The notes: generated from the sequence alone by a model not told the origin. Positions 5,169-25,133 are shown, counted from the stretch's first letter. The stretch is DNA of 32,000 bases from Euzebya rosea (GCF_003073135.1 NZ_PGDQ01000004.1:18363-50362); one strand, 5' to 3'. Numbers and translations are program-made.

Positions 5169-5190
5169 CGGACCGTGCTCGGCATGAGCG

Positions 5191-7567: not shown

Positions 7568-7684
7568 GATCTCACCGTATGGGGCGGTCCACGCGCGGGC
7601 GTCCCCCCGAGGTGGGGAACCGGGGGTGAACCACGACGCGCTTCCCTTGTGTGCCCACCGGCCGGCTCGTAGGCTCCCGCAGCG

Positions 7685-8497
7685 ATGCTGCCACCCTTCG
7701 TCGAGCCGGCGGCGGACTCGGTCGACGGGTTCGTCTGGATCGATGCTGCGCGCACGGTCGGGCTGCCCCAGGTGCTCGCCGACCCCCTTCGTCCCGCGGG
7801 GGCGCTGCTGCGTCAGCACCTGGATGCGCTCGACCAGATGCTCATCACGGTGATGGGCGAGCTCGGTGTCCTCCTCGGCGGTTCGGCCGGGGCGCTCGAT
7901 CCGGCACAGAGCGATCGGCTGGACCGTCTGGAGGCCGCTATCGACCGGTTGGTCGGCGAGTACCGGGCTGGCCTCCTCACGGTCGGGGTGGTCGCCGACG
8001 TCCGTGGCGGCCAGATCTGCGGCACCGCCACCATCATCGGCCATCGCATCCGCGTGGTGCGAGGACGTGTGCCCTCCGCGCCCCTGTCCGGGCAGGTGGA
8101 TGAGCCGGGCCTGGGCGTGGTGGCGGGCCTCGCCGAGATGTCCGATCCCGTGGCGGGTGCCCCCTGGTCGGGCCGACGGTGGATCGTGCGCACCCAGGAC
8201 GGTCGTCGGCTTCCGGCGACGCTGGGGATGCTCCTGGGCGATTCGTCGGGGGTGGACCGCAAGGCGACGCTCGATGCCCACCGCGAGGCGCTGAAGGACA
8301 TCACGGGTGTGGCGGGCGACGACCCGCGCGCCGCCGGGGCGCTGGAGCACCTCCTGCTGGACTGGCTGATGGCGCACCGCGAGGACCAGACCTCCATCGC
8401 CGTGGAGATCGCCAAGGGACGGATCGACGACGCGGCGATGATCGTGGACGCGGCCACGACGGCCGGATCGTTGCGGACGCTGGCGACCGGGCACTGA
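7685..8497 (+). CDS. Hypothetical protein (270 aa), no family recognised
   Basis: This is a long ATG-initiated ORF with the strong third-position GC bias of the coding genes here. It is divergent from rpe across 117 bp. The opposite-strand ORF 7813..8457 is Ser/Arg/Pro-rich and looks like a shadow. No motif identified by eye. Confidence 0.6.
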   Translation: MLPPFVEPAADSVDGFVWIDAARTVGLPQVLADPLRPAGALLRQHLDALDQMLITVMGELGVLLGGSAGALDPAQSDRLDRLEAAIDRLVGEYRAGLLTVGVVADVRGGQICGTATIIGHRIRVVRGRVPSAPLSGQVDEPGLGVVAGLAEMSDPVAGAPWSGRRWIVRTQDGRRLPATLGMLLGDSSGVDRKATLDAHREALKDITGVAGDDPRAAGALEHLLLDWLMAHREDQTSIAVEIAKGRIDDAAMIVDAATTAGSLRTLATGH

Positions 8498-8525
8498 CGC
8501 AGGGTCTGCGGCGCCCACCGCGGCT

Positions 8526-9584
8526 CTAGCGGCGGAAGGTCGCCGAGGGGGGTTCACCGAACCGCTGGCGGTAGGCCGTGGCGAAGCGTCCCGCGTTGCT
8601 GAACCCCCAGTCGCTGGCCACCATCGCGATGGTGACCCCGTCGCCAGGTCCGTAGCGCAGAAGGTCCTCGCGGGCGGCCTCGAGTCGTCGGTCCCTGACG
8701 TAGTTCATCGGTGTGGTGTCCAGCAGATCCCTGAAGGTGCTCTGGACCGCCCGTACCGAGACGCCTGCGGCACGGGCGATGTCTGCCATGGAGATCGGTT
8801 CGTCGAGGTGTGCCTCGATGTGGTCGACGGCGCGCCGCGCCACGCGGTTGCGGCGGACCCCCGGCATGCGCAGCAGCTCGACGGTGCAGCTCGACTGGTG
8901 GGTCACCAGGATCGTGGTCAGCACCAGTGACTCGAGCGGCTGCGCCTCGACCGGCACCTCGGCCCCCGGTTCCAGGAGCGCGATCTCACCGTGCAACAAC
9001 GCCAGCGCCGACTGCCAGCGCTCTGCGGACAGCTCGGTCAGGTTCATCTTCTCGTCGAAGACCACCTCGTCGACGAAGGTCCGCCCCAGCAACGCGTCGA
9101 GGCCCCGCCGCAGGCCGTGCACCTCCAGGGACAGGATCATCAGCGGCCCTGCCCCGTCGGACTCGACCCGCACGGGCCGACGACGGGCGGGGAACCCGGC
9201 GGTCGTCGAGTCCAGCCAGGTCGAGGTGGTCCCGCTGCGGACCAGGACCGTCCCGTCGGTGGGCACGATGACCAGCTGGGCATCCTTGGGCAGCCGAGTC
9301 GCACGCAGGACCCAGGGCCGGTCGACCTCGAGGTAGGCCACCTTCACCCAGGTCATCTCCGCGAGGTACAGGCCCGCGCTGTGGCCCGGCACATCGGTCG
9401 CGGCATCGAAGCGACACCCCCCGAACAGGGTGGCGAGCGAGTGCCCAAGGGCGGCTGGGTCATCGCCGTGGTCGGCGACGAGGTAGCGGACGAACCCGTT
9501 CGGCAGGCCACGCCGCGGGGCCAGGGGGCGAACGGGGTGTGCCGTCTTCGCGATCTTGATCTTCTGCAGGTGTTGGAAGCCCAT
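8526..9584 (-). CDS. AraC/XylS family transcriptional regulator
   Basis: A C-terminal double HTH reads ISMADIARAAGVSVRAVQSTFRDLLDTTPMNYVRDRRLEAARE...IAMVASDWGFSNAGRFATAYRQRFGEPPS. The long N-terminal effector-type domain is consistent with the family. It is divergent from the hydrogenase cluster. Confidence 0.85.
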   Translation of the reverse strand: MGFQHLQKIKIAKTAHPVRPLAPRRGLPNGFVRYLVADHGDDPAALGHSLATLFGGCRFDAATDVPGHSAGLYLAEMTWVKVAYLEVDRPWVLRATRLPKDAQLVIVPTDGTVLVRSGTTSTWLDSTTAGFPARRRPVRVESDGAGPLMILSLEVHGLRRGLDALLGRTFVDEVVFDEKMNLTELSAERWQSALALLHGEIALLEPGAEVPVEAQPLESLVLTTILVTHQSSCTVELLRMPGVRRNRVARRAVDHIEAHLDEPISMADIARAAGVSVRAVQSTFRDLLDTTPMNYVRDRRLEAAREDLLRYGPGDGVTIAMVASDWGFSNAGRFATAYRQRFGEPPSATFRR

Positions 9585-9640: not shown

Positions 9641-9695
9641 TAGTTTGCGACTACAGACGGGCCAGCCAGCGTGGTTGGTCCAACGGAAGGAGGGC

Positions 9696-10223
9696 GTGGT
9701 GAGCACTGAGTCTTCGTTGGTGCGCTCGGATTCGTCAGAGCGGCAGCCGATAGATGCGTTGACCGACCGGCTCAACGATCCTGCGGTCGCCGCATCGTTG
9801 GGGTTGCTGCTGGACAACGTCGAGGCGTTGGCGGTCCTGGCCATGGGCGCGCAGGGCCTGCTCAACCGCGGCGACACGCTGGCCGACTCGTTGGCAGACG
9901 GCGTGCACATGCTCCGCGATGCATCCGCGGGCGCCGGCGTGGACATCGACGAGGCCAGGCAAGCCATGGCCTTCGGTCGACACGTCATGGGCCACGCGGG
10001 GGACATCGAGCACCTGCTCGAGTCGCGCATGCTCCGCCCGCAGGTGGTCGAGGTGCTGTCGATGGCCGCCGAGGCGCTGGTCGAAGGTCGTGCCGCCGCA
10101 CGGGACGGCGAGCCGGAGATCACGGGCATCAGGTCGGCGTTGCGCGTGCTGAAGGATCCCGACGTCGCGAGGGGACTCGACTTCCTCATCAATGTCGCCC
10201 GCGCGCTGTCGACGCGCCTGTAG
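9696..10223 (+). CDS. DUF1641-like helical protein, first gene of the hydrogenase cluster
   Basis: The C-terminus ITGIRSALRVLKDPDVARGLDFLINVARAL matches my recollection of the DUF1641 signature (LRALRDPDVQRGLGFL-like). GTG at 9696 or 9699 directly follows GGAAGGAGGG. The ATG at 9645 lacks an RBS. Confidence 0.65.
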   Translation: MVSTESSLVRSDSSERQPIDALTDRLNDPAVAASLGLLLDNVEALAVLAMGAQGLLNRGDTLADSLADGVHMLRDASAGAGVDIDEARQAMAFGRHVMGHAGDIEHLLESRMLRPQVVEVLSMAAEALVEGRAAARDGEPEITGIRSALRVLKDPDVARGLDFLINVARALSTRL

Positions 10224-10245
10224 CCGCAGGACGGCGTAGACGACC

Positions 10246-10614
10246 ATGCACGAACTCTCCATCGCCAGCGCCGTCGCGCGAGAGGTGACCGACCAGCTCG
10301 GTGACCAGACCGCGCAGGTCCGCACGGTCCGCCTCGACGTGGGCCGGCTGTCGGGGATCGTCACCGACGCGCTCGCCTACGGCTGGACCTTCGTCCGCCA
10401 GGACACCCCGCTGGCCGACGCCGATCTGGAGATCACGTCGGTCGATGTGACGATCCGCTGCCAGCCCTGCGGTAACGTCGCCCGGGCGGTCGGTTTCGAG
10501 GGATTCGTCTGCGTCGAGTGCGGCACCCCCAGCGCCGACTTCCTCAGCGGCACCGATCTGATGATCCGCGGTGTCGTGCTGACCGACAGCGTTCCCGCCG
10601 GGGCTACGCTATGA
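10246..10614 (+). CDS. hypA: Hydrogenase nickel incorporation protein HypA
   Basis: N-terminal MHELSIA and a zinc site CQPCG...CVECG. The size is ~120 aa. Confidence 0.9.
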   Translation: MHELSIASAVAREVTDQLGDQTAQVRTVRLDVGRLSGIVTDALAYGWTFVRQDTPLADADLEITSVDVTIRCQPCGNVARAVGFEGFVCVECGTPSADFLSGTDLMIRGVVLTDSVPAGATL

Positions 10615-11315
10615 GCGCCCGGGCCGATGTCGACGCCCGCGAGGTGGCCCTCGAGCGGAAGGTTCTGGCCGCCAACGACGACGTAGCGATGCGGCTCCGG
10701 CAGCGCTTTGTCGCGGCGAGAACCGTGGCGATCAACATCCTCAGCTCCCCCGGCAGCGGGAAGACCACCCTCCTCACCGCGCTGCTCCGCGAGCTGGGCA
10801 CGGTCGGCCTTGGTGCAGCTGCGCTGGTCGGTGATTGCGCGACCGACAACGACGCACGGCGGCTGGCCGCCAGCGGCGCTCCCGTGCTGCAGATCGTGAC
10901 AGAGGGGATGTGCCACCTGGAGGCGGACATGATCGACGCCCACCTCGATCGTCTCGCGGTCGAGCAGGGTGCGCCGCTGGACGACCTGGACGTGCTGCTG
11001 CTGGAGAACGTCGGCAACCTCGTCTGCCCGGCTGGCTTCGACCTCGGCGAGACCGAGCGCTGGGTGCTGCTCAGCGTCAGCGAGGGCGAGGACAAGCCGC
11101 TGAAGTACCCGGCGGCCTTCGCCGGGGCCGATGTGGTCGTGATCAGCAAGATCGACCTCGCCGAGCCGTGCCGGTTCGACCGCGCGGCCGCTCACGACGC
11201 CATCCGACGGGTCGCACCGAGGGCGACCGTCATCGAGACCTCCTCCTTCACAGGTGAGGGACTGCAAGACCTGCTGCGGCGAGCCGCCGCTGCGACGCGA
11301 CAAGAAGGGAGCTGA
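10611..11315 (+). CDS. hypB: Hydrogenase nickel incorporation GTPase HypB
   Basis: P-loop SSPGSGKTTLL, the ENVGNLVCPA motif and SKIDL. ATG at 10611 overlaps the hypA stop (ATGA). No His-rich N-terminus. Confidence 0.92.
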   Translation: MSARADVDAREVALERKVLAANDDVAMRLRQRFVAARTVAINILSSPGSGKTTLLTALLRELGTVGLGAAALVGDCATDNDARRLAASGAPVLQIVTEGMCHLEADMIDAHLDRLAVEQGAPLDDLDVLLLENVGNLVCPAGFDLGETERWVLLSVSEGEDKPLKYPAAFAGADVVVISKIDLAEPCRFDRAAAHDAIRRVAPRATVIETSSFTGEGLQDLLRRAAAATRQEGS

Positions 11316-11317
11316 CC

Positions 11318-12289
11318 GTGGCATCCGTCCTCTGGTTCCAAGGAGGGGCGTGCAGCGGCAACACGATGTCGTTCCTCAACGCTGAGGAGCCGTCTGTTGT
11401 CGATCTGATCGTCGACTTCGGGCTTGACCTCATCTGGCATCCGTCGCTGGGCATGGAGCTCGGCGACCAAGCCAAGAAGATCTTCGCCGACTGCGCCAGC
11501 GGTGCGCGGGACATGGACATCTTCGTCTTCGAGGGCACCGTCATCGAGGGGCCGAACGGCACCGGCATGATGCAGACGTTCGCCGACCGTCCCATGAAGG
11601 ACTGGGTCGACGAGCTGGCCGCCGCGGCGTCGATCGTCGTCGCGATCGGTGACTGCGCCTGCTGGGGTGGCATCCCGGCGACCGACCCCAACCCGACCGA
11701 CTCCACCGGCCTGCAGTTCCACAAGCGGGCCAAGGGCGGCTACCTGGGCGGCGACTTCGTCTCCAAGGCGGGCCTGCCGGTGATCAACATCCCGGGCTGC
11801 CCGGCACACCCGGACTGGATCACGCAGATCCTGGTCGCCCTGGCCACCGGTCGCGCCGGCGACCTCTCGCTGGACGAGCTGCATCGTCCTGAGACGTTCT
11901 TCAAGACCTTCACCCAGACCGGCTGCACCCGGGTGCAGTTCTTCGAGTACAAGCAGGACACGGCCTCGTTCGGCGAGGGCACCCGGACAGGCTGCCTGTT
12001 CTACGAGTTCGGGTGCCGCGGGCCGATGACGCACTCACCCTGCAACCGGATCCTGTGGAACCGGCAATCCTCCAAGACCCGTGCGGGCATGCCCTGCATC
12101 GGCTGTACGGAGCCGGAGTTCCCGCACTTCGACCTCGCGCCTGGGACGGTGTTCAAGACGCAGAAGATCAGCGGCGTCGTCCCGCGCGAGGTGCCGGAGG
12201 GGACCGATCACCTGACCTACATGGCCCACGCAGCTGCAGCGCGGATCGCCGCGCCGCAGTGGTCCAAGGAAGACATGTTCGTCGTCTGA
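11318..12289 (+). CDS. hucS: [NiFe]-hydrogenase small subunit, no TAT signal (Huc/group 2a-like)
   Basis: The protein starts directly with the conserved core, (M)ASVLWFQGGACSGNTMSFLNAEEP, so it has no twin-arginine leader. Fe-S ligand regions are GDCACWGG, PGCPAHPDW, GCRGP and CIGCTEP. GTG at 11318 follows AAGAAGGGAG. Confidence 0.92.
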   Translation: MASVLWFQGGACSGNTMSFLNAEEPSVVDLIVDFGLDLIWHPSLGMELGDQAKKIFADCASGARDMDIFVFEGTVIEGPNGTGMMQTFADRPMKDWVDELAAAASIVVAIGDCACWGGIPATDPNPTDSTGLQFHKRAKGGYLGGDFVSKAGLPVINIPGCPAHPDWITQILVALATGRAGDLSLDELHRPETFFKTFTQTGCTRVQFFEYKQDTASFGEGTRTGCLFYEFGCRGPMTHSPCNRILWNRQSSKTRAGMPCIGCTEPEFPHFDLAPGTVFKTQKISGVVPREVPEGTDHLTYMAHAAAARIAAPQWSKEDMFVV

Positions 12290-12314
12290 GGACGGACCGG
12301 AAGGAACCAAGAGC

Positions 12315-13922
12315 ATGAGCACGCTAGATCTGCACGTCAGCCCGCTGGGCCGCGTCGAGGGCGACCTGGACGTCCGCGTCACCATCGAGGACGGCCACGT
12401 CACCTCGGCGTGGACCGAGGCCGCGATGTTCCGTGGCTTCGAGATCATCCTGCGCGGCAAGGACCCGCAGGCCGGCCTGGTCGTCACACCCCGCATCTGC
12501 GGGATCTGCGGTGGCAGTCACCTGTACAAGTCCTGCTACGCGCTGGACACCGCCTGGGCGACCCACGTCCCCCCGAACGCCACGCGGGTGCGCAACATCG
12601 CTCAGGCATGCGAGACGCTGCAGTCTATCCCGCGCTACTTCTACGCGCTGTTCGCGATCGACCTGGTGAACAAGAACTACGCCAAGTCCTCGCTGTACGA
12701 CGAGGCCGTCAGGCGCTTCGCACCCTACGTCGGCACGGCCTACCAGAAGGGCGTGACGCTCTCGAACAAGCCGGTGGAGGTCTACGCGATCTTCGGCGGC
12801 CAGTGGCCGCACAGCTCGTTCATGATTCCCGGCGGGGTCATGTGCGCGCCGAACCTGGCCGACGTCACGCGCTCCATCGCGATCCTGGAGCACTGGAAGG
12901 ACAACTGGTTGGAGGCCGAGTGGCTCGGCTGCTCCATCGACCGGTGGCTGGAGAACAAGACGTGGAACGACGTCCTGGCATGGCTGGAGGAGTCTGAGGC
13001 GCACTACAACTCCGACTGCGGCTTCTTCATCCGCTTCTGCATGGACGTCGGCCTGGACACCTACGGACAGGGCTGCGGCAACTACATCGCGACCGGCACC
13101 TACTTCCAGCCCGAGCTGTACACCACCCCGACCATCGACGCTCGCAACGATGCGCTGATCAACCGATCGGGGGTCTACGCCGGCGGCGAGTTCCACACCT
13201 TCGACCATCTTCGCGTCGGTGAGGACGTCACCCACAGCTTCTTCCAGGGCAGCGGCGTGCTGCACCCCTGGGAGGGGCAGACGATCCCGCTCGACCCGGT
13301 CGAGGCCAGGAAGCAGGGCAAGTACTCGTGGGCGAAGTCGCCCCGGTACAACGTCGAGGGCAAGGGCTACATCCCGCTGGAGGCGGGCCCGCTGGCCCGA
13401 CGGATGGCGGCGGCCGCACCCGGCGCGGGAGCGCACCAGGACGACGACCCGCTGTTCCTGGATATCATGAACACGATCGGGCCGTCGGTCATGACCCGGC
13501 AGCTCGCACGGATGCACGAGGGCCCGAAGTACTACAAGTGGACCCGGCAGTGGCTGGACGAGCTGGAGCTCGGCGAATCCTTCTACACCAAGCCGGTGGA
13601 GCACGCCGAGGGGCGCGGCTTCGGTTCGACCGAGGCAGCGCGCGGTGCGCTGTCGGACTGGATCGTGATCGAGGACAACAAGATCGCGAACTACCAGGTC
13701 GTCACCCCGACCGCCTGGAACATCGGCCCACGCGACGGAGAGGCCACGCTCGGCCCCATCGAGCAGGCCCTCGTCGGCGCACCGATCGTCGACCAGGACG
13801 ACCCGGTGGAGCTCGGGCACGTCGCCCGGAGCTTCGACAGCTGCCTGGTCTGCACGGTGCACGCCTACGACGGCAAGACGGGCAAGGAGCTGTCCCGCTT
13901 CGTCATCAACGGCAACGGCTGA
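12315..13922 (+). CDS. hucL: [NiFe]-hydrogenase large subunit (535 aa; Huc/group 2a-like)
   Basis: The L1 motif is RICGICGGSH (Cys62/Cys65). The L2 motif is SFDSCLVCTVH, followed by a 19-aa C-terminal extension (AYDGKTGKELSRFVINGNG), the substrate for the downstream endopeptidase. The size is smaller than my recollection (about 600 aa) of group 1h enzymes. Confidence 0.95.
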   Translation: MSTLDLHVSPLGRVEGDLDVRVTIEDGHVTSAWTEAAMFRGFEIILRGKDPQAGLVVTPRICGICGGSHLYKSCYALDTAWATHVPPNATRVRNIAQACETLQSIPRYFYALFAIDLVNKNYAKSSLYDEAVRRFAPYVGTAYQKGVTLSNKPVEVYAIFGGQWPHSSFMIPGGVMCAPNLADVTRSIAILEHWKDNWLEAEWLGCSIDRWLENKTWNDVLAWLEESEAHYNSDCGFFIRFCMDVGLDTYGQGCGNYIATGTYFQPELYTTPTIDARNDALINRSGVYAGGEFHTFDHLRVGEDVTHSFFQGSGVLHPWEGQTIPLDPVEARKQGKYSWAKSPRYNVEGKGYIPLEAGPLARRMAAAAPGAGAHQDDDPLFLDIMNTIGPSVMTRQLARMHEGPKYYKWTRQWLDELELGESFYTKPVEHAEGRGFGSTEAARGALSDWIVIEDNKIANYQVVTPTAWNIGPRDGEATLGPIEQALVGAPIVDQDDPVELGHVARSFDSCLVCTVHAYDGKTGKELSRFVINGNG

Positions 13923-13933
13923 GGACGAGGATC

Positions 13934-14479
13934 CTGGCCCCCCACCCGCCGCCGCAGTCGACGACCGACACCTTGGTCGTCGGCTGCGGCAACCTGCTTC
14001 GAGGTGACGACGGCGTCGGCCCGATCGTGATCCGCGAGCTGTGGGAGGGGCTCGGCGGACTCGCGATCACCCCCGGAGGCGTGGAGCTGGTCGACGGAGG
14101 GACCGCTGGGATGGACGTCGCCTTCAAGATGCGCGGCGTCCGTCGGGTGATCGTGATCGACGCCGCGGCGACCGGTGCCGAACCCGGCACCGTCTTCGAG
14201 GTTCCCGGCCAGGCGCTGGAGGACCTGCCGCCGCTTGAGGGGCTCCACACCCACCTGTTCAGGTGGGATCACGCACTGGCGTTCGCGCGCTGGCTGCTGA
14301 AGGACGAGTATCCGACGGATATCACCGTCCTTCTGGTGGAGGCCGTCTCGGTGGGGCTGGGGGATCCGCTGTCGGAGCCCGCACGACGCGGCCTGGACAT
14401 CGTCAAGCAGCGGATCATCGACGACGTGCTGGGCAGCGATTGGTCCCAGCCCGACCCCGCCGTGCTGCCGTGTCGGTGA
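13934..14479 (+). CDS. hupD: Hydrogenase maturation endopeptidase (HupD/HybD/HupW family); start codon uncertain
   Basis: The translation has LVVGCGNLLRGDDGVGP, VIVIDAA and GLHTH. There is no in-frame ATG or GTG between the hucL stop and the conserved N-terminus. Candidate starts are CTG 13934 (just after GAGGACGAGG) or TTG 13973. Confidence 0.8.
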   Translation: MAPHPPPQSTTDTLVVGCGNLLRGDDGVGPIVIRELWEGLGGLAITPGGVELVDGGTAGMDVAFKMRGVRRVIVIDAAATGAEPGTVFEVPGQALEDLPPLEGLHTHLFRWDHALAFARWLLKDEYPTDITVLLVEAVSVGLGDPLSEPARRGLDIVKQRIIDDVLGSDWSQPDPAVLPCR

Positions 14480-14715
14480 TGGCGACCGCGGAACCGGCCG
14501 ACCTGGCCACGGCGTCGGTCGAGCGGGAGGACGGCCAGTGGGTCGTGTACCTGACGGTGCTGTTCCCCGACGGCGTGGTGCGGCGTCGCATCGGCCAGCA
14601 CCGCACCGAGCACCTCGCCCGGATCGCGGCCACATGGATCGAACGCGCATCCAACCGGGACGTGTTGACCCCGGGCAACCAGCGGCCCCCGACGGAGGGA
14701 CCAGCAACGACATGA
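14479..14715 (+). CDS. Small hypothetical protein (78 aa) in the hydrogenase cluster
   Basis: The ATG overlaps the endopeptidase stop by 1 nt (TGATG), and its own stop overlaps the next ATG (ATGA). The frame is consistent with local codon bias. No family recognised. Confidence 0.5.
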   Translation: MATAEPADLATASVEREDGQWVVYLTVLFPDGVVRRRIGQHRTEHLARIAATWIERASNRDVLTPGNQRPPTEGPATT

Positions 14716-16040
14716 GCACGATGACGACCTCGACCAGCAGCACGATCGCACGACCGCAGCCCCTGGGTGTGCTCCCGCTGCCCGCCGGCTACCTGGTCCT
14801 GCCGGATCTCGACCCCGCGCATCACGAGGTCCTGGCCGGACTGTGCCGTGGACAGATCCCCACCAGCTGGCCGCCGGCCCTCGAGACCCTGCGCCTGGCG
14901 CTCTCCGGTGATCTCGCGGCGGCAGCGGCCAGCCTCGACGGGGATGACTCACCCGTTGGGACGGTCAACCGACTGGTCCTGACGGGAGACCCGAACCTGC
15001 TGTCGCGGCTGGCGGGGCTGGACGGGGACCTGGCAGCCCACGTCCGGTTGGTCGCCTTCTCGCTGGGGCTGTCCGACGAGGTGCCGGATCCCTCCGGCCT
15101 CGACGGTGTCGTGGCCGCGTTGGCGCACGCGGCGGTGGCCGCCGCAGCGACCGCGGCCCACGAGCACGGTCACGCGGTCCTTGCGCTGGAGTCGGCCGTT
15201 GAGGCCGCGCGGCCCGAGAGCGAGGCGCTGACCGGCCAGTTGCTCGGTGCGCTGGCCGGCGCAATGCAGGACGCAGGTGCCGCGGCTGGCCGCGTCCTGC
15301 AGCGCTACGAGGAGGGACTGCGGCTGCTGGAGGCCAGCGACCTCCGTCTGGCGCAGGCCGAGCTGCACCTCGCCGCGGGGATGGTGGTGCAGGAGCTGGC
15401 GGGCGAGAACCGGGACGCCCTGGGCGCCGCGGTCAGGCACTACCAGGGTGCGCTCCGCCTCGCCGATCCGAGGGTCGCGCCGGAGCTGTTCGCCCAAGCC
15501 CACACCAACCTCGCGACGGCCTACCTGACGATGCCGATGCTCGAGGCCAGCGATCAGCTGCGGGTCGGCATCGCGGTCCGGTCGCTGCGCAAGGCACTGG
15601 AGATCCTCGACCCGGAGCGCCACTCGGCGCAGGTCGCGTCGGTGCGGCTGAACCTGGCCAACGCGCTGGTGTACCTGCCGTCGCAGGTCCAAGGGGACAA
15701 CCTGGTGGAGGCCGTGGAGTTGTACGAGGAGGTTCTGGCCGAACGCGACGCCGACGCCGACCCTGCGGCCTACGCCAGGGCGGCAGCGAACCAGGGCAAC
15801 GCGCTGGCTCACCTGGGCATGTTCGATCAGGCGACCGCGCGCCTGCACGAGGCCCGGGTCATCTTCGACCAGATCGGCGACTACGACGGGGTGGCCACCG
15901 TCCGCGAGGTGCTGGGGGAGATCGCCCGCCAGGTCGCGCGGGATGGGAAGCGTGCCGGATACATCGGTGCGCTGCCGCCAAAGCCCGAGGCCGGCGCGTC
16001 GGCGAGCCGTTACCCGACCGAGGAGATCCCGCAGCCGTGA
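14712..16040 (+). CDS. TPR-like repeat protein (442 aa)
   Basis: The C-terminal half has repeated Ala/Leu-rich helical-pair units, for example AVRHYQGALRLADP...AQAHTNLATAY, IAVRSLRKALEIL...RLNLANALVYL and EAVELYEEVL...AANQGNALAHLGMFDQA. ATG at 14712 is coupled to the upstream stop. Confidence 0.7.
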   Translation: MSTMTTSTSSTIARPQPLGVLPLPAGYLVLPDLDPAHHEVLAGLCRGQIPTSWPPALETLRLALSGDLAAAAASLDGDDSPVGTVNRLVLTGDPNLLSRLAGLDGDLAAHVRLVAFSLGLSDEVPDPSGLDGVVAALAHAAVAAAATAAHEHGHAVLALESAVEAARPESEALTGQLLGALAGAMQDAGAAAGRVLQRYEEGLRLLEASDLRLAQAELHLAAGMVVQELAGENRDALGAAVRHYQGALRLADPRVAPELFAQAHTNLATAYLTMPMLEASDQLRVGIAVRSLRKALEILDPERHSAQVASVRLNLANALVYLPSQVQGDNLVEAVELYEEVLAERDADADPAAYARAAANQGNALAHLGMFDQATARLHEARVIFDQIGDYDGVATVREVLGEIARQVARDGKRAGYIGALPPKPEAGASASRYPTEEIPQP

Positions 16041-16963
16041 GCACGACGACCGAGCGGGAGGTGGCCGCCGATCAGCCGACGCTGACGCGGCTCGCCGGCC
16101 GGGTCGACGCCGCGATGGCAGCCCTGTCGGGGCTGGACCACGACGCGCGTGCCGTGGCCAAGGAGGTCAAGGCCTCGCTGGAGGCGTTCCACGGCGAGGC
16201 GCTGCGCCGCGTCGTCCGACGCCTGAAGGACGACGACCGCGGACGAGAGCTGTTGATGGAGCTGGTCGATGACGACCTGGTCAGGGCGACGCTCGGGTTG
16301 CACGGGATCCTGCGCCCGCCTGTGCATGTGCAGGCCGAACGGGCCCTGGCAGGGGTGCGGCCTTACCTGGAGAGCCACGGCGGCGGGGTGAGCCTGGTCG
16401 AGATCACCGATGATGGCGTCGCCCGGGTCAGGCTGGAGGGCGCCTGCAACGGCTGCTCGATGTCAGCGCAGACGCTGACCAACGCCGTGCAGGTGGCGCT
16501 GGTCGAAGGTGTCCCCGAGATCGGCGGAATCGAGGTAGTGACCGAGCAGGCGGTGAACCTGATCAGCCCGGAGTCCCTCACCCGGCGACCGCAGCCTAGC
16601 GGGCCTGCGACGTCCGACGGGCCAGGGGCACCCGTCCGCGAGGCCGGGTCGGAGGCGGGATGGGTTCGCGGACCTGGGCTCCTGGAGATCGGCGACCCCG
16701 GAGCCACCATCGCGAGGACCGATCTCGGGGAGATCCTCGTGGTCCAAGATGGTGGCGTCGTCGCGGCTTACCGCAACCAGTGCGGTCATCTGGGTCTGTC
16801 CCTGGAGGATGCCGATGTCGGGGCAGGCAAGGTCATCTGCGCCCACCACGGCTACCGCTTCGACGTCGCGACCGGGGCCGGGCTGACCGAGCCCGGATCG
16901 GCGCTCAGCCCGATCCCCAGCCGGGTCGAGGGGGTCCACGTCTGGCTCCGGCCGGGTTCGTGA
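16037..16963 (+). CDS. hucE: NifU-like / Rieske-type [2Fe-2S] fusion protein (HucE/HhyE-like hydrogenase-associated Fe-S protein)
   Basis: The central NifU C-terminal-type segment is VRPYLESHGGGVSLVEITDDGVARVRLEGACNGCSMS. The C-terminal Rieske pattern is C-G-H-x17-C-A-H-H (NQCGHLGLSLEDADVGAGKVICAHHGYRF). GTG at 16037 overlaps the upstream stop (GTGA). Confidence 0.8.
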   Translation: MSTTTEREVAADQPTLTRLAGRVDAAMAALSGLDHDARAVAKEVKASLEAFHGEALRRVVRRLKDDDRGRELLMELVDDDLVRATLGLHGILRPPVHVQAERALAGVRPYLESHGGGVSLVEITDDGVARVRLEGACNGCSMSAQTLTNAVQVALVEGVPEIGGIEVVTEQAVNLISPESLTRRPQPSGPATSDGPGAPVREAGSEAGWVRGPGLLEIGDPGATIARTDLGEILVVQDGGVVAAYRNQCGHLGLSLEDADVGAGKVICAHHGYRFDVATGAGLTEPGSALSPIPSRVEGVHVWLRPGS

Positions 16964-18156
16964 CTGAGGTGGCGGAGATCCGCGCGCCGCTGGCGCACAG
17001 CCGACCGGCGTTGATCGCCACGTCAGGCACGGCCGCGGCTGGTTCCTGGCGGCCAACCGTGCGCGTGGGGGCTCCCGCTGTCGGAGGGCTGTCGCTGCCC
17101 GCGGCCCACCCGACCGCCGCGCACCTGTACGCCCCCCGAGGTGTGTGGTTCGACGACGACGTGCTGGTCGTTGCCGACAGCGGCAACCACCGCATCTTGA
17201 TCTGGCACGGGCTTCCGAGCTCCGACGAGGCCGAAGCCGACGTGATCCTGTGCCAACCCGCTCCGACCGCCGAGGGTCCGGCCGCCGGGGGGCGCGGCCC
17301 GAGCAAGGGAGTGCACCTGCCGACCGGGGTCCTCGTCCACGACGGCGCACTGTTCGTCGCCGACGCGTGGCATCACAGGATCCTGGTCTGGTCCACGCTG
17401 CCGACCGCGCACGACGCCCCACCCGACGGCGTGATCGGCCAGACCGACCTGCAGAGCGTGCAGCCCAACCGCGGCGAGGACTCGTGCGGTCCGGACTCGA
17501 TGTACTGGCCCTACGGACTGGGCCTCGTCGGCGGGGTGTTCTGGGTCGCCGACACCGGCAACCGACGTGTGCTCGGCTGGAGTGGCGGCCCCCCCGAGCC
17601 CGGGTCCACGCGAGGCCCCGACATCCTGCTGGGACAGGCCGCCTGGACCGCCCGGGACGAGAACCGGGGCGGGGACCCCACCGCCGACTCCTTCCGCTGG
17701 CCACATGACATCGCCGGAACCGATCACCTGCTGCTGGTCGCCGACGCGGGCAACCACCGCGTGCTCGGATGGGCGCCCGTGCCCGACGGCGATGGACCCG
17801 CCGACCTGGTGCTGGGCCAGGACGCGATGACCACAGCGACGGAGTGGCCGTACGGTCCGCAGCGCGCGATCGGCCACCGCTTCCCCTACGCGATCAGCGT
17901 GGACGGGGACCGCCTGGTCGTCGCCGACACCGCCAACAACCGGCTACTGGTGTGGGACTCCGTCCCACGACACACCCAACAAGCGCCGGACCACGTCCTG
18001 GCACAGCCCGACTTCGCCGCCAACGGTGAGAACCGCTGGGACCAGGTGCGCGACGACACGCTGTGCTGGCCCTACGGCGTGCACCTGCGCGGGGACCGGC
18101 TGGCCGTGGCGGACTCCGGCAATAACCGTGTCATGGTGTGGGAGTCGCTCCCGTGA
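16960..18156 (+). CDS. Six-bladed NHL-repeat beta-propeller protein
   Basis: There are six evenly spaced repeats of the form (L/F)xVAD(S/T/A)xNxR(I/V/L)LxW: LVVADSGNHRILIW, LFVADAWHHRILVW, FWVADTGNRRVLGW, LLVADAGNHRVLGW, LVVADTANNRLLVW and LAVADSGNNRVMVW. GTG at 16960 overlaps the upstream stop (GTGA). No signal peptide is evident. Confidence 0.85.
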   Translation: MTEVAEIRAPLAHSRPALIATSGTAAAGSWRPTVRVGAPAVGGLSLPAAHPTAAHLYAPRGVWFDDDVLVVADSGNHRILIWHGLPSSDEAEADVILCQPAPTAEGPAAGGRGPSKGVHLPTGVLVHDGALFVADAWHHRILVWSTLPTAHDAPPDGVIGQTDLQSVQPNRGEDSCGPDSMYWPYGLGLVGGVFWVADTGNRRVLGWSGGPPEPGSTRGPDILLGQAAWTARDENRGGDPTADSFRWPHDIAGTDHLLLVADAGNHRVLGWAPVPDGDGPADLVLGQDAMTTATEWPYGPQRAIGHRFPYAISVDGDRLVVADTANNRLLVWDSVPRHTQQAPDHVLAQPDFAANGENRWDQVRDDTLCWPYGVHLRGDRLAVADSGNNRVMVWESLP

Positions 18157-20582
18157 AGGGCCAGGCGGTCGCTGCCCATGTCCGCCTTCGGGTTCGGGGC
18201 ACGGTGCAGGGTGTGGGGTTCAGGCCGCACGTGCACCGCCTGGCGACCTCGCTGGGCCTTGCCGGCAGCGTCCGCAACGACAGCGAAGGCGTGCTGATCG
18301 AGCTGTCCGGCCCCAGCGGGGCGATCACCGACTTCCGACGCCGGCTGGTCACCGACGCCCCCGCCCTCGCGGTGATCGCCGACGTCTGCGAGGAGACGAC
18401 GCCGCCGGGCGACCGGCCATCGCCGGAGGGCTTCACGATCGGCCTCAGCGACGCCGGTGACGGGCAGCGCCGGACCGCGGGCGCACCGCCGGACACCACG
18501 ACCTGTCGGGCCTGCCTCGACGAGCTGCACGATCCCCGGGATCGTCGCTACCGCCACCCCTTCATCACCTGTACCGACTGCGGCCCCCGCTTCACCATCA
18601 TCCGGTCCCTGCCGTACGACCGTCCCGCCACCACGATGGCCGACTTCGACCTGTGCGGGCCGTGCACCGAGGAGTACCACGACCCGTCCGACCGGCGCTT
18701 CCACGCCCAGCCCATCGCCTGCCACGAGTGCGGGCCCGGGCTGTGGTTCGATGGCCAGGGCGGTCGTGGCCGCGCGCTTACCGACGCCGCGTTGGCGGCG
18801 GCGCAGTCGGCTCTGCGGCAGGGACGGATCGTGGCGGTCAAGGGCATCGGTGGCTACCACCTGGCCTGTCGTGCCGACGACACCGCCGTTGTGGCGCGCC
18901 TGCGTCAGCGCAAGCAACGGCCGGGGAAGCCCTTCGCGCTGCTGGTGCGCGACCTGGACGATGCCCGGTCGATCGCGCACGTCGATGACGTCGAGGCAGA
19001 GGCCCTGTCAGGGCCGGCTGCCCCGATCGTCCTGCTCCGTCGGCGGGACAATGCGGCCGCCGCAGCCCGCATCGCGGCCGGGCAGGTCGCCCCGGGCAAC
19101 CCGCTGATCGGCGTGATGCTGGCGTCGAACCCGCTGCACCGGCTGCTGCTGGAACCCGTCCCCGGCATCGCGTCGGCACCGCCGGCCGTGCTGGTGATGA
19201 CCAGCGGGAACCTGAGCGAGGAACCGATCTGCACCGACGACAGCGACGCCCGGCGCCGGCTGGGGGACATCGCCGACGCCTTCCTCGCCCACGACCGCCC
19301 GATCGCCGTACCGTGCGACGACTCGGTGGTGCGGGTGCTCGACGGGCAGCCCGTCGTCCTGCGACGCTCACGCGGCTTCGTGCCCACCGCGGTCAGGTTG
19401 CCTGCTCCGGGCGCTGCCGCGCTGGGCCTCGGGGGCCAGCTGAAGTCGACGGTCTGCCTGACCGACGGCACCCAGGCCTGGTTGTCCCAGCACATCGGCG
19501 ACATGGGGAGCCTGCCGGCGCTGGAGGCCTTCCAGCGCAGCGTCGAGCGGACTCGGACGATGTACCGGGTCCGACCGCGGGTGCTCGCCTGCGATGCCCA
19601 TCCCGACCACACCGCCCATGCCTGGGCGCGGCGCCACGCCGACGGCGTGCCGGTCATGCCGATCCAGCACCATCACGCCCACGTCACCGCCCTCATGGTC
19701 GAGTCCGGCCTCACGGGGCCCGTGATCGGGGTGGCCTTCGATGGCACCGGATTCGGGCGGGCGCCCGATGGGTCTGCACAGATCTGGGGCGGCGAGATCC
19801 TGATCGCGACCCTGCAGGACGCGCGGCGCGCTGCCCACCTGTCGCTGGTGGCGCTACCCGGAGGGGACGCCGCGATCCGCCATCCACGACGGGTCGCGCT
19901 GTCGCACCTTCGCGCTGCCGGCCTCGACTGGGCTGCGGACCTTGCCCCCGTCGTCGCCACCGATGTCGACGAACGCGCCGTCATCGCAGCCCAGATCGAC
20001 CAGGGCGTGAACACCGTGCCGACCAGCAGCATGGGACGGCTCTTCGACGCCGTCTCCTCCCTGCTGGGGATCCGTCACGACATCACCTACGAGGCGCAGG
20101 CGGCCATCGAGCTGGAGATCGTCGCCGATGACCACCGTCGCCGGGGTGGCCGGACTGCCGAGCTGATCCTGCCGCTGATGTGGGACGCAAGGGTCGGGCA
20201 GGCAGACGCGAGCGAGCCGGGCGTGCTGCATGCACCGACCCTGGTCCACACGATCGTGGCGGCGCTGCGAGCCGGCGAGCCCGTGGGCGCCATCGCCCTG
20301 GGCTTCCACGTGGCGGTGGCGCACGCGGTGTCCACGGTTGCCGAGGATCTGGCCCGCCGGACCGGGGTGCGGGACGTATGCCTCACCGGTGGGGTCTTCG
20401 CCAACGCCCTGCTGCTGTCGCTGACGACCGACCGCCTGCGGGACGTAGGCCTGACGCCCCACCGCCATCGTGTTGTCCCGCCCAACGACGGCGGGTTGGC
20501 GCTGGGGCAGGCCGCCATCGCCTCGGCCTCCGCTAAGAACATCGGACAACCGCTACAAGAGAGGGGCGCACCATGTGCCTAG
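18153..20582 (+). CDS. hypF: Carbamoyltransferase HypF
   Basis: An acylphosphatase-like N-terminus (VRGTVQGVGFRPHV) is followed by two zinc-finger pairs (CRACLDELHDPRDRRYRHPFITCTDCGPRF and CGPCTEEYHDPSDRRFHAQPIACHECGP). YrdC-like and Kae1-like regions follow. GTG at 18153 overlaps the NHL gene stop (GTGA). An alternative ATG lies at 18138. Confidence 0.93.
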   Translation: MKGQAVAAHVRLRVRGTVQGVGFRPHVHRLATSLGLAGSVRNDSEGVLIELSGPSGAITDFRRRLVTDAPALAVIADVCEETTPPGDRPSPEGFTIGLSDAGDGQRRTAGAPPDTTTCRACLDELHDPRDRRYRHPFITCTDCGPRFTIIRSLPYDRPATTMADFDLCGPCTEEYHDPSDRRFHAQPIACHECGPGLWFDGQGGRGRALTDAALAAAQSALRQGRIVAVKGIGGYHLACRADDTAVVARLRQRKQRPGKPFALLVRDLDDARSIAHVDDVEAEALSGPAAPIVLLRRRDNAAAAARIAAGQVAPGNPLIGVMLASNPLHRLLLEPVPGIASAPPAVLVMTSGNLSEEPICTDDSDARRRLGDIADAFLAHDRPIAVPCDDSVVRVLDGQPVVLRRSRGFVPTAVRLPAPGAAALGLGGQLKSTVCLTDGTQAWLSQHIGDMGSLPALEAFQRSVERTRTMYRVRPRVLACDAHPDHTAHAWARRHADGVPVMPIQHHHAHVTALMVESGLTGPVIGVAFDGTGFGRAPDGSAQIWGGEILIATLQDARRAAHLSLVALPGGDAAIRHPRRVALSHLRAAGLDWAADLAPVVATDVDERAVIAAQIDQGVNTVPTSSMGRLFDAVSSLLGIRHDITYEAQAAIELEIVADDHRRRGGRTAELILPLMWDARVGQADASEPGVLHAPTLVHTIVAALRAGEPVGAIALGFHVAVAHAVSTVAEDLARRTGVRDVCLTGGVFANALLLSLTTDRLRDVGLTPHRHRVVPPNDGGLALGQAAIASASAKNIGQPLQERGAPCA

Positions 20583-20886
20583 GAGTGCCAGGGAAGGTCG
20601 TCGAGATCAGGGAGGAGCGGGGAACCCGGATGGCCACCGTCGATTTCGGCGGGGTGACCAAGGACTGCTGCCTCGCCTACGTCCCCGAGGCGCAGATCGG
20701 TGAGTACACCGTGATCCACGCCGGCTTCGCCATCACCATGCTGGACGAGGATTCCGCGCTGCAGACGCTGAAGCTGTTCGATGAGATCGGGCTGCTGGAG
20801 GAGGAGCTGGGTGTGCCCGACCAGATCGCCATCGTCGACAAGCGCACCCGCCGCGAGATCGGTCTGCAGGCAGGAGGAGGAACCTC

Positions 20887-20890
<4 letters not shown>
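20573..20890 (+). CDS. hypC: Hydrogenase assembly chaperone HypC/HupF family
   Basis: N-terminal [12 protein letters not shown]. At 105 aa it is longer than I would expect for a HypC, because of a C-terminal tail ([32 protein letters not shown]). Confidence 0.9.
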
Positions 20891-22005
<1,115 letters not shown>

Positions 22006-22014
22006 GGATCCTCT

Positions 22015-23082
22015 ATGAGCGACCACCTGGATCTGGAGAACTGGTCCTGTCCCTTGCCTCTACGCGACCACGAGCGGATTGTGAGCGGCCACGGCGGTGG
22101 CGGCAAGCTATCCGCCGAGCTGGTCGAGCATCTGTTCCTACCGGCGTTCGGTGAGGCGGCCGCCACCGCCACCCCGACCGATGCGGCAACGGTGATGGTG
22201 GGTGGCGCTCGACTCGCCTTCTCCACCGACAGCTACGTGGTGCAGCCGCTGTTCTTCCCCGGCGGCAACATCGGCGAGCTCGCCATCAACGGCACCGTAA
22301 ACGACATCGCGATGTCGGGGGCGGTCCCGCTGGCCCTGTCGACCGCCTTCATCCTCGAGGAGGGTTTGGAGCTGGCCGTGCTCGATGCGATCGCACGATC
22401 CATGGGCAAGGCCGCCGGGGCCGCCCAGGTTCCGTTGGTCACGGGCGACACCAAGGTCGTCGATACCGGGGACGGCAACGGGATGACGGTCACGACGGCG
22501 GGGTTCGGACTGGTCCCCGACGGTGTTGAACTTGCGCCGGGCCATATCCGTCCGGGCGACCGGATCATCGTGTCCGGACCGATCGGCGCGCACGGTGTCG
22601 CTGTGATGAGCGTTCGCGAGGGACTGTCGTTCGGCACCGAGGTCCGCTCGGACACGCGGCCGCTGACGCGCATGGTGCAGTCGATGCTGTCTGCGGCCCC
22701 CGCCGGGGCGGTGCACTGCCTCCGTGACGCCACGCGTGGCGGGATGGCGGCCTCCCTGTGCGAGCTCGCGCTGACCGCCGACGTGGGTGTGGCCTATCAG
22801 GAGCGAGCCGTGCCGGTCCCCCCCGAGGTTGCGAGCGCCTGTGCGTTTCTCGGGCTCGATCCGATCCATGTGGCCAACGAGGGGACCTTGGTGGCTTTCG
22901 TCGCAGCCGATGCGGCGGATGCCGTCCTGGCTGCCATGCACGGAACCTCCGAGGGCGCCGGCGCGGCGATCATCGGGGATGTGGTGGATGACCACCACGG
23001 GATCGTCGTGGCCCGAACTGCAATCGGTGCCAACCGAGTGGTCGACCTGCCACTGGGTGAGCAGCTTCCTCGGATCTGTTGA
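22015..23082 (+). CDS. hypE: Hydrogenase expression/formation protein HypE
   Basis: An AIR-synthase-like fold with the canonical C-terminal motif ending PRIC. Confidence 0.93.
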   Translation: MSDHLDLENWSCPLPLRDHERIVSGHGGGGKLSAELVEHLFLPAFGEAAATATPTDAATVMVGGARLAFSTDSYVVQPLFFPGGNIGELAINGTVNDIAMSGAVPLALSTAFILEEGLELAVLDAIARSMGKAAGAAQVPLVTGDTKVVDTGDGNGMTVTTAGFGLVPDGVELAPGHIRPGDRIIVSGPIGAHGVAVMSVREGLSFGTEVRSDTRPLTRMVQSMLSAAPAGAVHCLRDATRGGMAASLCELALTADVGVAYQERAVPVPPEVASACAFLGLDPIHVANEGTLVAFVAADAADAVLAAMHGTSEGAGAAIIGDVVDDHHGIVVARTAIGANRVVDLPLGEQLPRIC

Positions 23083-23560: not shown

Positions 23561-23871
23561 ATAAGCACGACAGGTCCATCGGGGTCGCCGAACTCGCGTC
23601 GGTACACCCCTGAGGAGAAGGCCCAGGCCGTCCGGCTGGTGCGCGCGCTGCGGACCGAGCTGGGCACGACGCAGGGCACCGTGACCCGGGTCGCCGACCA
23701 GCTCGGCTACGGCCGCGAGACGGTCCGCAAGTGGGTCCGCGACGACGAGATCACCAACGGCGCCACTCCGACCGTCGCTGAACAGAGCACGGCGGAGCAG
23801 CGCCGGATCGCGCAGCTGGAGCAGGAGAATCGCGAGCGCAAGCGGGCCAACGCGATCCTGAAGTCCGCATC
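23561..23871 (+). pseudogene. IS3-family OrfA, 5' part (no ATG; split by the IS30 insertion)
   Basis: AAGGAGG lies at 23548-23554, followed 6 nt later by ATA (23561) where an ATG would be expected. The frame is open from 23537. The reading frame resumes at 25096 after the nested IS. Confidence 0.6.
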
Positions 23872-25035
23872 CCTGAACTCAAGGGTCAGCGCAACGGTTG
23901 CGAGGGTAGCGGAGGGCGTGGCGAACTCGAGGCGCTTGCGGGGCCGGCGATTCAACTTGGCCGCGATCGCGTCGAAGTCGGCCTGGGTCAGGCCGGCCAT
24001 CGACTCACCCTTCGGCAGGTACTGGCGCAGCAGACCGTTCGTGTTCTCGTTCGTGCCACGCTGCCAGGGTGACCGGGAATCGCAGAAGAAGACCGGGACG
24101 CTGGTCTCCTCGGTGAGCCGCTGGTGATCGGCGAGTTCCATCCCGCGGTCCCAGGTCAGCGACTTGAACAGTCCGTCCGGCGCGTTGCCGATCCGGTTGA
24201 TGATCGCGTCGACGACGACGCTGGTGTGCCGACTCGCCAGCTCCAGGCAGATCGTGTAGCCGCTGGTGCGCTCGACCAGCGTCGCGATCTGCGTCCAGTG
24301 GCGGCCGAGAAGCATGTCACCTTCCCAGTGGCCTACTTCCTCGCGGGTCTCCACGTGCGCCGGCCGGTCGTGGATCGACACGGCGTTCTTGATCTGGGAG
24401 CGCCACTGCCCGGTCGTGGTGTTGTGCACGTTGCGGCGGGTGGGCCGCCGTGTGCGCAGCCGCTTCGTCAGCTGGTGGTCCAGCACGCCGCGGGAGCGGA
24501 CGAACAGCGACTTGTAGATGGCTTCGTGGGAGATCACCACGCCGTCGCCGAGCGGCTAGTCTCGTCGAAGCGTTCCGGCGATTTGCTCCGGCGACCAGTC
24601 CTCGGCGAGCCGATCAGCGACGTAGCCGCGTAGGCGCGGGTCACGTTTCAGCAGACAGGGCTTGGGGCGTCGGGCCCGCCGCCATGACCGGTCATCGGCG
24701 TCGACAGCACGGTAGTGCCGACGCCCGTTGTTTCTGGAGATCTCGCGACTGATCGTTGATGGGGGCCGCCCCAGATCGCGGGCAATCTGACGGATCGACT
24801 GCCCGGCGGCCAGACCTCTGGAGATCTCCTCCCGATCCTCAAGCGTCAGCGTGCCGGGACGACGGCGACGTGGCGGCGGAACGTAGCCGCCGGTCTGACG
24901 GATGATCGTGTAGATCGACCCCGGCGGGTGTCCGACGGCCTCTGCGATCTCGCTGAAGGAGCTGCCCGACCCCCACATCTTCCACACCGTCGCATGCTTC
25001 TCATCGGACATGCCGGGCCTCCCCAGCTTCGCCAT
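23872..25035 (-). pseudogene. IS30-family transposase with an in-frame TAG
   Basis: N-terminal HTH region: MAKLGRPGMSDEKH...SIRQIARDLGRPPSTISREISRN. DDE region: HWEGDMLLG...LTWDRGMELA...FCDSRSPWQRGTNENTNGLLRQYLPKG. An in-frame TAG (complement at 24556-24558) separates ...IAGTLRRD from PLGDGVVISHEAIY. The native stop appears lost, because the frame runs out through the IR. Confidence 0.75.
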
Positions 25036-25095
25036 CGCACACCACCTCCAGGGGTCATCTTCACGGGGGTGTTGCGCAGACCGGTTGAACCCAGG
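23872..25095 (-). mobile_element. IS30-family insertion sequence (copy 1, 1224 bp) nested in IS3 orfA
   Basis: The imperfect terminal inverted repeats are CCTGAACTCAAGGGTCAGCGCAAC (23872-23895) and the reverse complement of GTTGCGCAGACCGGTTGAACCCAGG (25071-25095). A 2-bp duplication TC flanks both sides. Removing the element and one TC restores the IS3 OrfA frame (KSAS-AFLAAELDRPHR*). Confidence 0.8.
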
Positions 25096-25133
25096 TCGGC
25101 TTTCCTCGCGGCGGAGCTCGACCGCCCACACAG

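Follow-up and report, generated by a model that had tools for sequence, protein, structure and literature searches.

The four genes at positions 14479-18156 of the stretch of Euzebya rosea DNA analysed here (GCF_003073135.1 NZ_PGDQ01000004.1:18363-50362; 32,000 nucleotides, hereafter the window) are the E. rosea version of the accessory block that accompanies group 2a [NiFe]-hydrogenases, the enzymes of the Huc and cyanobacterial Hup type. They encode a 78-aa protein (g78), a TPR protein, the NifU-Rieske protein HucE and an NHL propeller protein. We consider it probable, at roughly 60%, that the four products form a dedicated, non-structural maturation and assembly set for Huc. The original prediction had singled out these genes as the best candidate in the window for an undescribed functional module; this novelty does not hold, as an equivalent cyanobacterial block has been known since 2008 (PMC2408588, PMC3126725), the names hcaA and hcaB have been in print (PMC7248562), and a HucE knockout was reported in 2019 (PMC6883350). 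The finding reveals no new kind of system, and the interest of the block rests on how air-tolerant hydrogenases are built.

The four genes are real, far beyond chance. Because the window has a G+C content of about 70%, long open reading frames (ORFs) arise in it by chance on both strands, and coding was therefore checked independently by G+C at the third codon position (GC3), RefSeq matches and orthologues. In each of the four gene frames GC3 is 0.86-0.89 against 0.49-0.55 at the second position (GC2), and each of the four products has an identical Euzebya rosea protein in RefSeq (WP_108665390.1, WP_205712140.1, WP_108665034.1 and WP_205712141.1), annotated in gene order as AP2 domain-containing, as hypothetical, as NifU family and as NHL repeat-containing. 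Successive genes overlap by 1-4 nt: TGATG at 14477-14481 combines the protease stop with the g78 start (1-nt overlap), ATGA at 14712 connects g78 to the TPR gene, GTGA at 16037 and 16960 connects TPR to HucE and HucE to NHL, and a further GTGA at 18153 joins the NHL gene to hypF. The genes, their domains and these start/stop overlaps had all been predicted, and were borne out by the ORFs, GC3, RefSeq identity, Pfam and AlphaFold2 (AF2) models. A second RefSeq model of the NHL gene starts 9 nt later and gives a protein of 395 aa; since this alternative start leaves a 5-nt gap, the 4-nt overlap between HucE and NHL depends on the annotation. Such an overlap is also cheap by chance, since any TGA that follows A, G or T offers one. 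Across the related loci described below, a 4-nt overlap is the commonest junction, and the HucE-NHL junction is exactly of this type in 42/75 loci.

The block is enclosed in one uninterrupted operon on the plus strand, from 9645 to 23082, with the order hucM-hypA-hypB-hucS-hucL-protease-g78-TPR-HucE-NHL-hypF-hypC-hypD-hypE (Table 1). No promoter-like sites were found inside the operon, and terminator-like sites are no more frequent there than in shuffled sequence. Judged by sequence, the hydrogenase encoded beside the block is Huc, of group 2a: the small and large subunits score 671 and 1010 bits against HucS and HucL of Mycobacterium smegmatis (references 7UTD/7UUR/7UUS), so that HucE is encoded within a group 2a operon. 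Overlapping junctions also occur among the hyp genes (hypA/hypB -4, hypF/hypC -10, hypC/hypD -4), whereas the structural genes are separated by spacers of +2 to about +50 nt. The overlaps therefore group the four genes with the maturation genes, and they represent operon packing that is not special to these four. A fixed stoichiometry with the enzyme had earlier been read from them; we reject this, because the hyp genes overlap likewise and because Huc purified from M. smegmatis consists of HucS, HucL and HucM only (Grinter 2023, PMC10017518), a mature complex without any of the four proteins.

Conservation of the block was assessed in two sets of loci. An alignment of NHL orthologues led to at least 557 genomes, of which the best 80 loci were kept; in the 60 of these with at least 6.5 kb upstream of NHL, the upstream genes on the same strand were counted. 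HucS, HucL and the protease are present in 57/60, TPR in 59/60, HucE in 58/60 and the 78-aa gene in 45/60, and the order protease-(78aa)-TPR-HucE-NHL is kept in 57-59/60. These loci belong to at least five phyla (Actinomycetota, Chloroflexota, Acidobacteriota, Gemmatimonadota and Planctomycetota). The second set, metagenome loci anchored on HucL (n=28 with at least 5 kb downstream), contains the protease, TPR, HucE and NHL in 28/28 and the 78-aa gene in 25/28. Conservation beside the group 2a hydrogenase, on which the original prediction had staked itself, thus holds in both sets. NHL orthologues also adjoin NifU-family or hypF genes on plasmids of Thermus, Sulfobacillus, Sphingopyxis, Novosphingobium and Bradyrhizobium, and the whole layout is repeated in the three plasmid regions that were inspected (Thermus, Sphingopyxis and Bradyrhizobium). 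A HucM gene accompanies the block in some loci and not in others. We had also considered a role in assembly of the HucM stalk, and ruled it out since the block occurs in loci that lack HucM.

The set of small genes in the block varies between lineages. One locus (L003) displays the chain protease-X-g78-TPR-Q-HucE-NHL, in which all junctions overlap. X is a protein of about 98 aa with the motif GGLLLKQRN..GDR (L003:7027-7323) that is present in 64/80 loci, and Q is a protein of about 125 aa with the motif RQQFDFLL (L003:8749-9135) that is present in 17/80 loci and also on the plasmid L161 of Thermus. No relative of X or Q exists in Pfam, and profile searches against PDB sequences gave nothing significant for them. 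When looked for in the Euzebya window, both X and Q were absent. The full block therefore comprises six genes, and that of Euzebya is a reduced version, which to our reading is new here; TPR, NifU(-Rieske) and NHL constitute the universal core, and the small-ORF content is lineage-variable. In mycobacteria, the endopeptidase is 255-290 aa long and carries X as a C-terminal domain of about 90 aa (L001:6751-7521, L004:6710-7540, L010:6669-7529), which is missing from the Euzebya enzyme. This fusion suggests that X acts at the large-subunit processing step.

Other differences in layout were seen in single loci. The alphaproteobacterial plasmid loci of Sphingopyxis and Bradyrhizobium (L162/L163) are preceded by a sigma-54 regulator, and two additional small genes separate the large subunit from the protease. 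Their TPR-like protein is shorter, at about 330-350 aa, the small ORFs preceding NifU are different ones, and a SIS-domain gene is placed between hypC and hypD. In Mycolicibacterium agri (L042:8714-9054), an N-terminal fragment of HucM abuts a C-terminal fragment of the TPR protein; this locus has lost hucS, hucL and the protease along with most of the TPR gene, and keeps HucE, NHL and hypF-E. In a metagenome-assembled genome (MAG) of Mycobacterium (L048, 298-2605 and 10001-11134), about 7.4 kb separates HucE from the NHL gene.

A comparable arrangement was described in N2-fixing cyanobacteria, in which small ORFs followed by TPR, NifU and NHL genes lie between hupSL and hypF (Agervald 2008, Holmqvist 2011; PMC2408588, PMC3126725). 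This block, asr0689-alr0693, is co-transcribed and co-induced with hupS and the hyp genes, and its involvement in small-subunit maturation was proposed, although no mutants were made (PMC2408588, PMC3126725). As in the window, the cyanobacterial "extended hyp operon" (asr0689-alr0693 / Npun_R0363-R0367) has the order TPR, NifU-like, NHL before hypF, and it occurs only alongside an uptake (group 2a) hydrogenase. It has two small ORFs, described with two transmembrane regions, whereas the window has one soluble 78-aa protein; the equivalence of the two blocks is based on position, domain content and the HucE tree of Islam 2019, the sequences themselves not having been compared. The TPR and NHL genes of the window are the hcaA-type and hcaB-type genes of group 2a operons, respectively, named in a 2020 paper that gave their "functions unclear" (PMC7248562). 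More recently, a 2026 Parageobacillus paper listed the same genes as probable maturation proteins (PMC12976888).

For the NHL, TPR and 78-aa proteins our literature searches returned descriptive mentions only, in agreement with the earlier statement that no role has been demonstrated for them. HucE is the only member with genetic evidence, as had also been stated correctly: deletion of hucE (MSMEG_2268) in M. smegmatis, the only organism in which its requirement for H2 oxidation has been established, abolishes Huc activity, and nitroblue tetrazolium is no substitute (Islam 2019, PMC6883350). The same study detected HucE across 14 phyla and left its mechanism open (PMC6883350). The huc operon of M. 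smegmatis encodes the same enzyme, and HucS and HucL of the window are about 80-87% identical to the mycobacterial ones. The succession protease-small ORF-TPR-HucE-NHL was found in every examined Mycolicibacterium/Mycobacterium locus except L042, in a sample that did not include the M. smegmatis locus. Mycobacterial HucE has the same NifU CxxC and Rieske motif as HucE of the window, with 40-45% identity between them; the corresponding values are 45-50% for the TPR protein and about 60% for NHL.

HucE combines two Fe-S domains. Pfam detects NifU (70.6 bits, cut-off 27, E 1.2e-19) and Rieske (33.3 bits, cut-off 20.3, E 4.5e-8); the Nfu/NifU-C domain contains the CxxC motif (C137-N-G-C140, aa 137-140, nt 16445-16456), and the C-terminal Rieske [2Fe-2S] motif CGH-x16-CAHH (aa 249-271, nt 16781-16849) matches the Rieske signature of CxH and CxxH separated by a spacer of 15-18 residues. 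The helical N-terminal region of about 95 aa gave no family match. In PDB, the two domains are most closely related to Nfu proteins from plants and to Rieske-type ferredoxins, among them T4moC. HucE shares the CxxC of the Nfu carriers (plant CnfU/NFU, NfuA, human NFU1) and the CxH...CxxH ligands of the Rieske-type ferredoxins (T4moC, dioxygenase ferredoxins), and differs from both in that the two domains are fused in one chain together with the extra N-terminal region. It has only four cysteines, all of them in the CxxC motif or serving as cluster ligands; the additional disulfide-forming Cys pair of the high-potential Rieske proteins of bc1/b6f complexes is therefore missing. Both motifs are retained in almost all of 73 HucE orthologues. 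HhyE of the group 1h hydrogenases is likewise a NifU-like CxxC protein, whose gene belongs to the structural operon and on which activity depends, but it has two C-terminal CxxC motifs and no Rieske motif, and is about 27% identical to HucE.

The presence and conservation of a Rieske [2Fe-2S] domain in HucE would also fit an electron relay, in which HucE is the physiological acceptor of Huc, passing electrons to menaquinone or the respiratory chain, with the TPR and NHL proteins docking HucE. Huc has no cytochrome b subunit, and a relay was the hypothesis preferred by Islam 2019, who also reported that HhyE runs together with HhyS and HhyL in native gels (PMC6883350). We nevertheless find this explanation very unlikely: the purified HucS-HucL-HucM complex binds menaquinone beside the distal cluster and reduces it directly without HucE (PMC10017518), and the hucE deletion strain is inactive even when nitroblue tetrazolium is offered (PMC6883350). 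Variants of HucE without the Rieske domain exist, one locus has no HucE, and the gene sits among maturation genes. The original prediction had left open whether HucE is a relay to the respiratory chain or a cluster-delivery factor; the first half is disfavoured by the direct reduction of menaquinone (PMC10017518) and by the loss of dye-linked activity (PMC6883350), and cluster delivery is retained in the reading that we favour.

According to that reading, the four proteins would be made at low, coupled levels along with the Hyp proteins. HucS, with its three [3Fe-4S] clusters, would have to be built in air, and HucE may serve as an Fe-S carrier whose Nfu-type CxxC domain would hold a labile cluster for transfer to HucS. 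Its Rieske-type [2Fe-2S] domain could act as a source or buffer of electrons during cluster assembly or coupling. The TPR protein, an LGN-like superhelix with an invariant Asn ladder, would grip a client or partner protein by an extended peptide, the NHL propeller may be a rigid docking platform at the interface with the Hyp (large-subunit) machinery, and the 78-aa protein could be a small adaptor. We infer each of these individual roles. Support for a function in maturation comes from the location of the block between the endopeptidase and hypF, with overlapping junctions like those of the hyp genes, from the requirement for HucE (PMC6883350) and from a mature complex that lacks all four proteins (PMC10017518). 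The synteny across phyla, the linkage of NHL to the hyp genes, the conserved motifs and the four cysteines of HucE, the co-transcription in cyanobacteria and the occurrence of the block irrespective of HucM also count in its favour.

Several observations weigh against a dedicated maturation set. HucE orthologues that consist of NifU only, without the Rieske domain, are found in L036, L070 and L079, and a Frankia locus (L047) has no HucE, so the proposed chemistry would be partly dispensable in some lineages. Most Fe-S proteins are matured by generic Isc/Suf systems, so that the need for a special carrier is not obvious. That HhyE, the group 1h counterpart, migrates together with its HhyS and HhyL makes a looser physical association with the enzyme possible (PMC6883350). 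In the RNA-seq data of Parageobacillus thermoglucosidasius, the TPR and NHL genes and one hypB reach only 0.01-0.04 fragments per kilobase per million (FPKM) in all conditions, while the genes interspersed with them are strongly induced and attain FPKM values in the hundreds to thousands (PMC12976888).

A role after assembly has also to be weighed. The block may re-insert or re-reduce damaged Fe-S clusters, or reactivate Huc in air, using the Rieske domain as electron source. Its restriction to hydrogenases that work in air, namely Huc (PMC10017518) and the uptake hydrogenase of N2-fixing cyanobacteria (PMC2408588), agrees with such maintenance, as do the union of a cluster carrier with a redox domain in HucE and the unusual all-[3Fe-4S] wiring of Huc (PMC10017518). 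Yet purified Huc is stable and insensitive to O2 without these proteins (PMC10017518), and the hucE knockout loses activity completely rather than by gradual decay (PMC6883350). We regard repair as rather unlikely, while the present data do not separate it from the maturation model. The task presumed for the block in the maturation model, to protect and load an Fe-S small subunit under oxic conditions, is also the one presumed for HupGHIJ/HoxOQRT, the small-subunit maturation genes of the group 1d membrane-bound hydrogenases. Their products have no sequence relationship to the four described here, however, and Huc lacks a Tat signal peptide to which chaperones of this kind could bind; no match to HyaE/thioredoxin-like, HupH or rubredoxin domains was obtained for the four proteins in Pfam or NCBIfam.

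The TPR protein is hardly recognizable by profile, with a TPR_12 score of 21.1 bits, below the Pfam cut-off of 30.1. Its AF2 model (pLDDT 93.3, pTM 0.88) is an all-helical solenoid of 19 helices, and the predicted fold is that of a paired-helix TPR superhelix. The best Foldseek matches to the model are the TPR domains of LGN/Pins (E 4e-7, probability 1.0, TM 0.5-0.6), and O-GlcNAc transferase (OGT) and kinesin light chain (KLC) were matched as well. Searches found 549 homologues. The invariant residues N314, N317, N330, N360 and N363 sit in the helix-A motifs NLANAL and NQGNAL, as in the LGN/Pins and kinesin-light-chain TPR domains. In those families, such Asn residues line the peptide-binding groove. 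The TPR protein differs from both types by its low identity (about 19%) and by about 120 additional N-terminal residues.

The NHL protein matches Pfam NHL with 83.2 bits (cut-off 20, E 6.4e-24) and contains six VADxxNxR motifs with a period of about 62 aa, a pattern that fits a six-bladed beta-propeller. We found 5136 homologues, and orthologues from different phyla are 55-64% identical. With about 60% identity across phyla, the NHL protein is better conserved than TPR, HucE, HypA, HypB and HypF, and about equal to the endopeptidase. A search of the representative library with the NHL protein was dominated by giant multi-propeller proteins of 1000-7000 aa with 32-40% identity, and yielded only six matches of orthologue size, three of them truncated or frameshifted. 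The giants (P0245-P0392) have up to 20 propeller copies, each 32-40% identical to the Huc NHL protein. Given these relatives, the Huc-linked propeller belongs to a widespread bacterial NHL subfamily that is used as a repeated module.

The NHL gene is closely associated with the hyp genes. In 42 loci the gene right after it is hypF or hypC, and a Thermoanaerobaculia MAG has hypA-hypB-NHL-hypC-hypD-hypE (L075:8879-13596) and lacks hucSL, TPR and HucE within 10 kb of it. Trichodesmium has its NHL gene upstream of hypF as well, at a distance of 3.8 Mb from hupSL (PMC2408588). Where the block is split, the NHL gene thus stays with the hyp genes, which is also new here. A fusion of NHL to HypF, suggested by gene calling in L065, was rejected because the DNA contains a stop codon. 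It is conceivable that the propeller is not a passive scaffold and acts, with the TPR and small proteins, as a Hyp-like maturation factor specific to the oxygen-insensitive cytosolic group 2a hydrogenases, installing an as yet unexplained feature of Huc. Candidates for such a feature would be the D configuration of HucL residue His166 or the relay composed entirely of [3Fe-4S] clusters; to our knowledge, no epimerase is known for D-His166. The high conservation of NHL, its linkage to hyp genes and the use of the NHL fold by at least one enzyme (peptidyl-hydroxyglycine lyase, a weak PDB match) are compatible with this idea, none of them demonstrating it, and we hold it to be unlikely. Purified Huc contains three [3Fe-4S] clusters and, in HucL, a D-histidine, and it directly reduces the menaquinone bound to it (PMC10017518).

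The 78-aa protein belongs, by its sequence, to a conserved family that is new here. Orthologues with 35-60% identity were identified in related loci (55/80 and 49/80), where the gene invariably comes after the protease and before TPR; these include most actinobacterial loci and some from Chloroflexota and Acidobacteriota. The Thermus and alphaproteobacterial blocks do not contain the gene. An AF2 model built from a 4-sequence alignment predicts a three-stranded sheet and one helix (beta-beta-beta-alpha; pLDDT 82, core >90). The model is soluble, and the longest hydrophobic run is about 9 residues. Profile searches of Pfam, NCBIfam and PDB sequences gave no significant relative, and Foldseek retrieved no AP2 or integrase structures with the model, every match having E > 0.03.

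RefSeq labels this product "AP2 domain-containing protein". The searches made here do not support the AP2 identity: no Pfam AP2 match was obtained at E <= 10, the best orthologue reaches 14.6 bits against a cut-off of 33.3, and hhalign gives a probability of 0.4% with an AP2 comparison sequence. The label nevertheless raises a regulatory alternative, with the 78-aa protein as a small DNA-binding regulator of the operon and the TPR and NHL proteins as signal-sensing partners. The predicted sheet-plus-helix fold, with conserved Trp and Arg on the strands as in AP2-like domains, would be in keeping with this, and direct regulators of huc are still unidentified (PMC13098282). Since Pfam, hhalign and Foldseek fail to support AP2, and the gene sits amid maturation genes and is absent from the Thermus and alphaproteobacterial blocks, regulation appears highly improbable to us.

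Huc-type enzymes oxidise trace atmospheric H2 in full air and are in development as catalysts. Yields of Huc are low, and a review of the field states that progress needs a better understanding of maturases (PMC10657181). The block represents an obvious candidate list of Huc-specific maturases, consisting of the core TPR, NifU(-Rieske) and NHL proteins and the variable g78, X and Q. The reduced blocks of the Euzebya and Dactylosporangium type show which parts can be lost, and offer a natural minimal set for co-expression and knockout work.

Table 1. Genes of the hydrogenase operon in the window, with the median identity of their products to the window protein in the HucL-anchored set.
Gene or product	Position	Strand	Basis and remarks	Median identity
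HucM homologue (DUF1641), membrane-associated stalk subunit	9645..10223	+	Pfam DUF1641; 7UUS chain Q, E 1.4e-15	
hypA	10246-10614	+	Pfam HypA	
hypB	about 10611-11315	+	Pfam CobW/HypB; candidate start	43%
hucS, group 2a small subunit	11318-12289	+	match to M. smegmatis HucS (score in text)	
hucL, group 2a large subunit	12315-13922	+	match to M. smegmatis HucL (score in text)	
Hydrogenase maturation endopeptidase	13973..14479	+	Pfam HycI, TIGR00072; probable start TTG 13973	60.5%
78-aa protein (g78)	14479..14715	+	ATG start	46%
TPR protein, 442 aa	14712..16040	+	ATG start	48%
HucE (NifU-Rieske), 308 aa	16037..16963	+	GTG start	42%
NHL propeller, 398 aa	16960..18156	+	GTG start; alternative start 16969	60%
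hypF	18153-20582	+	Pfam, NCBIfam	52%
hypC	20573-20890	+	Pfam, NCBIfam	
hypD	20887-22005	+	Pfam, NCBIfam	
hypE	22015-23082	+	Pfam, NCBIfam	

The 5' part of the operon differs between lineages. In the window, hypA and hypB lie between hucM and hucS, an order shared by plasmid pTHTHE1601 of Thermus thermophilus (L161); in mycobacteria, hucM is immediately 5' of hucS. Divergent from hucM is a gene for an AraC-family regulator (8526-9584, minus strand), a candidate local regulator of the operon. Upstream of the operon, the region 151-8557 contains sugar-phosphate genes of Calvin-cycle/gluconeogenic type, encoding a partial and a full class I fructose-bisphosphate (FBP) aldolase, a GlpX FBPase and a ribulose-phosphate 3-epimerase. 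A GAF histidine kinase and a LuxR-type response regulator, resembling the DosS/DosR pair, are encoded at 3936-5844 on the minus strand. Directly past hypE, transposase and integrase fragments (rve, HTH_38, HTH_Tnp_1) on both strands occupy 23600-27200, which looks like a graveyard of insertion sequences (IS) at the border of the hydrogenase island.

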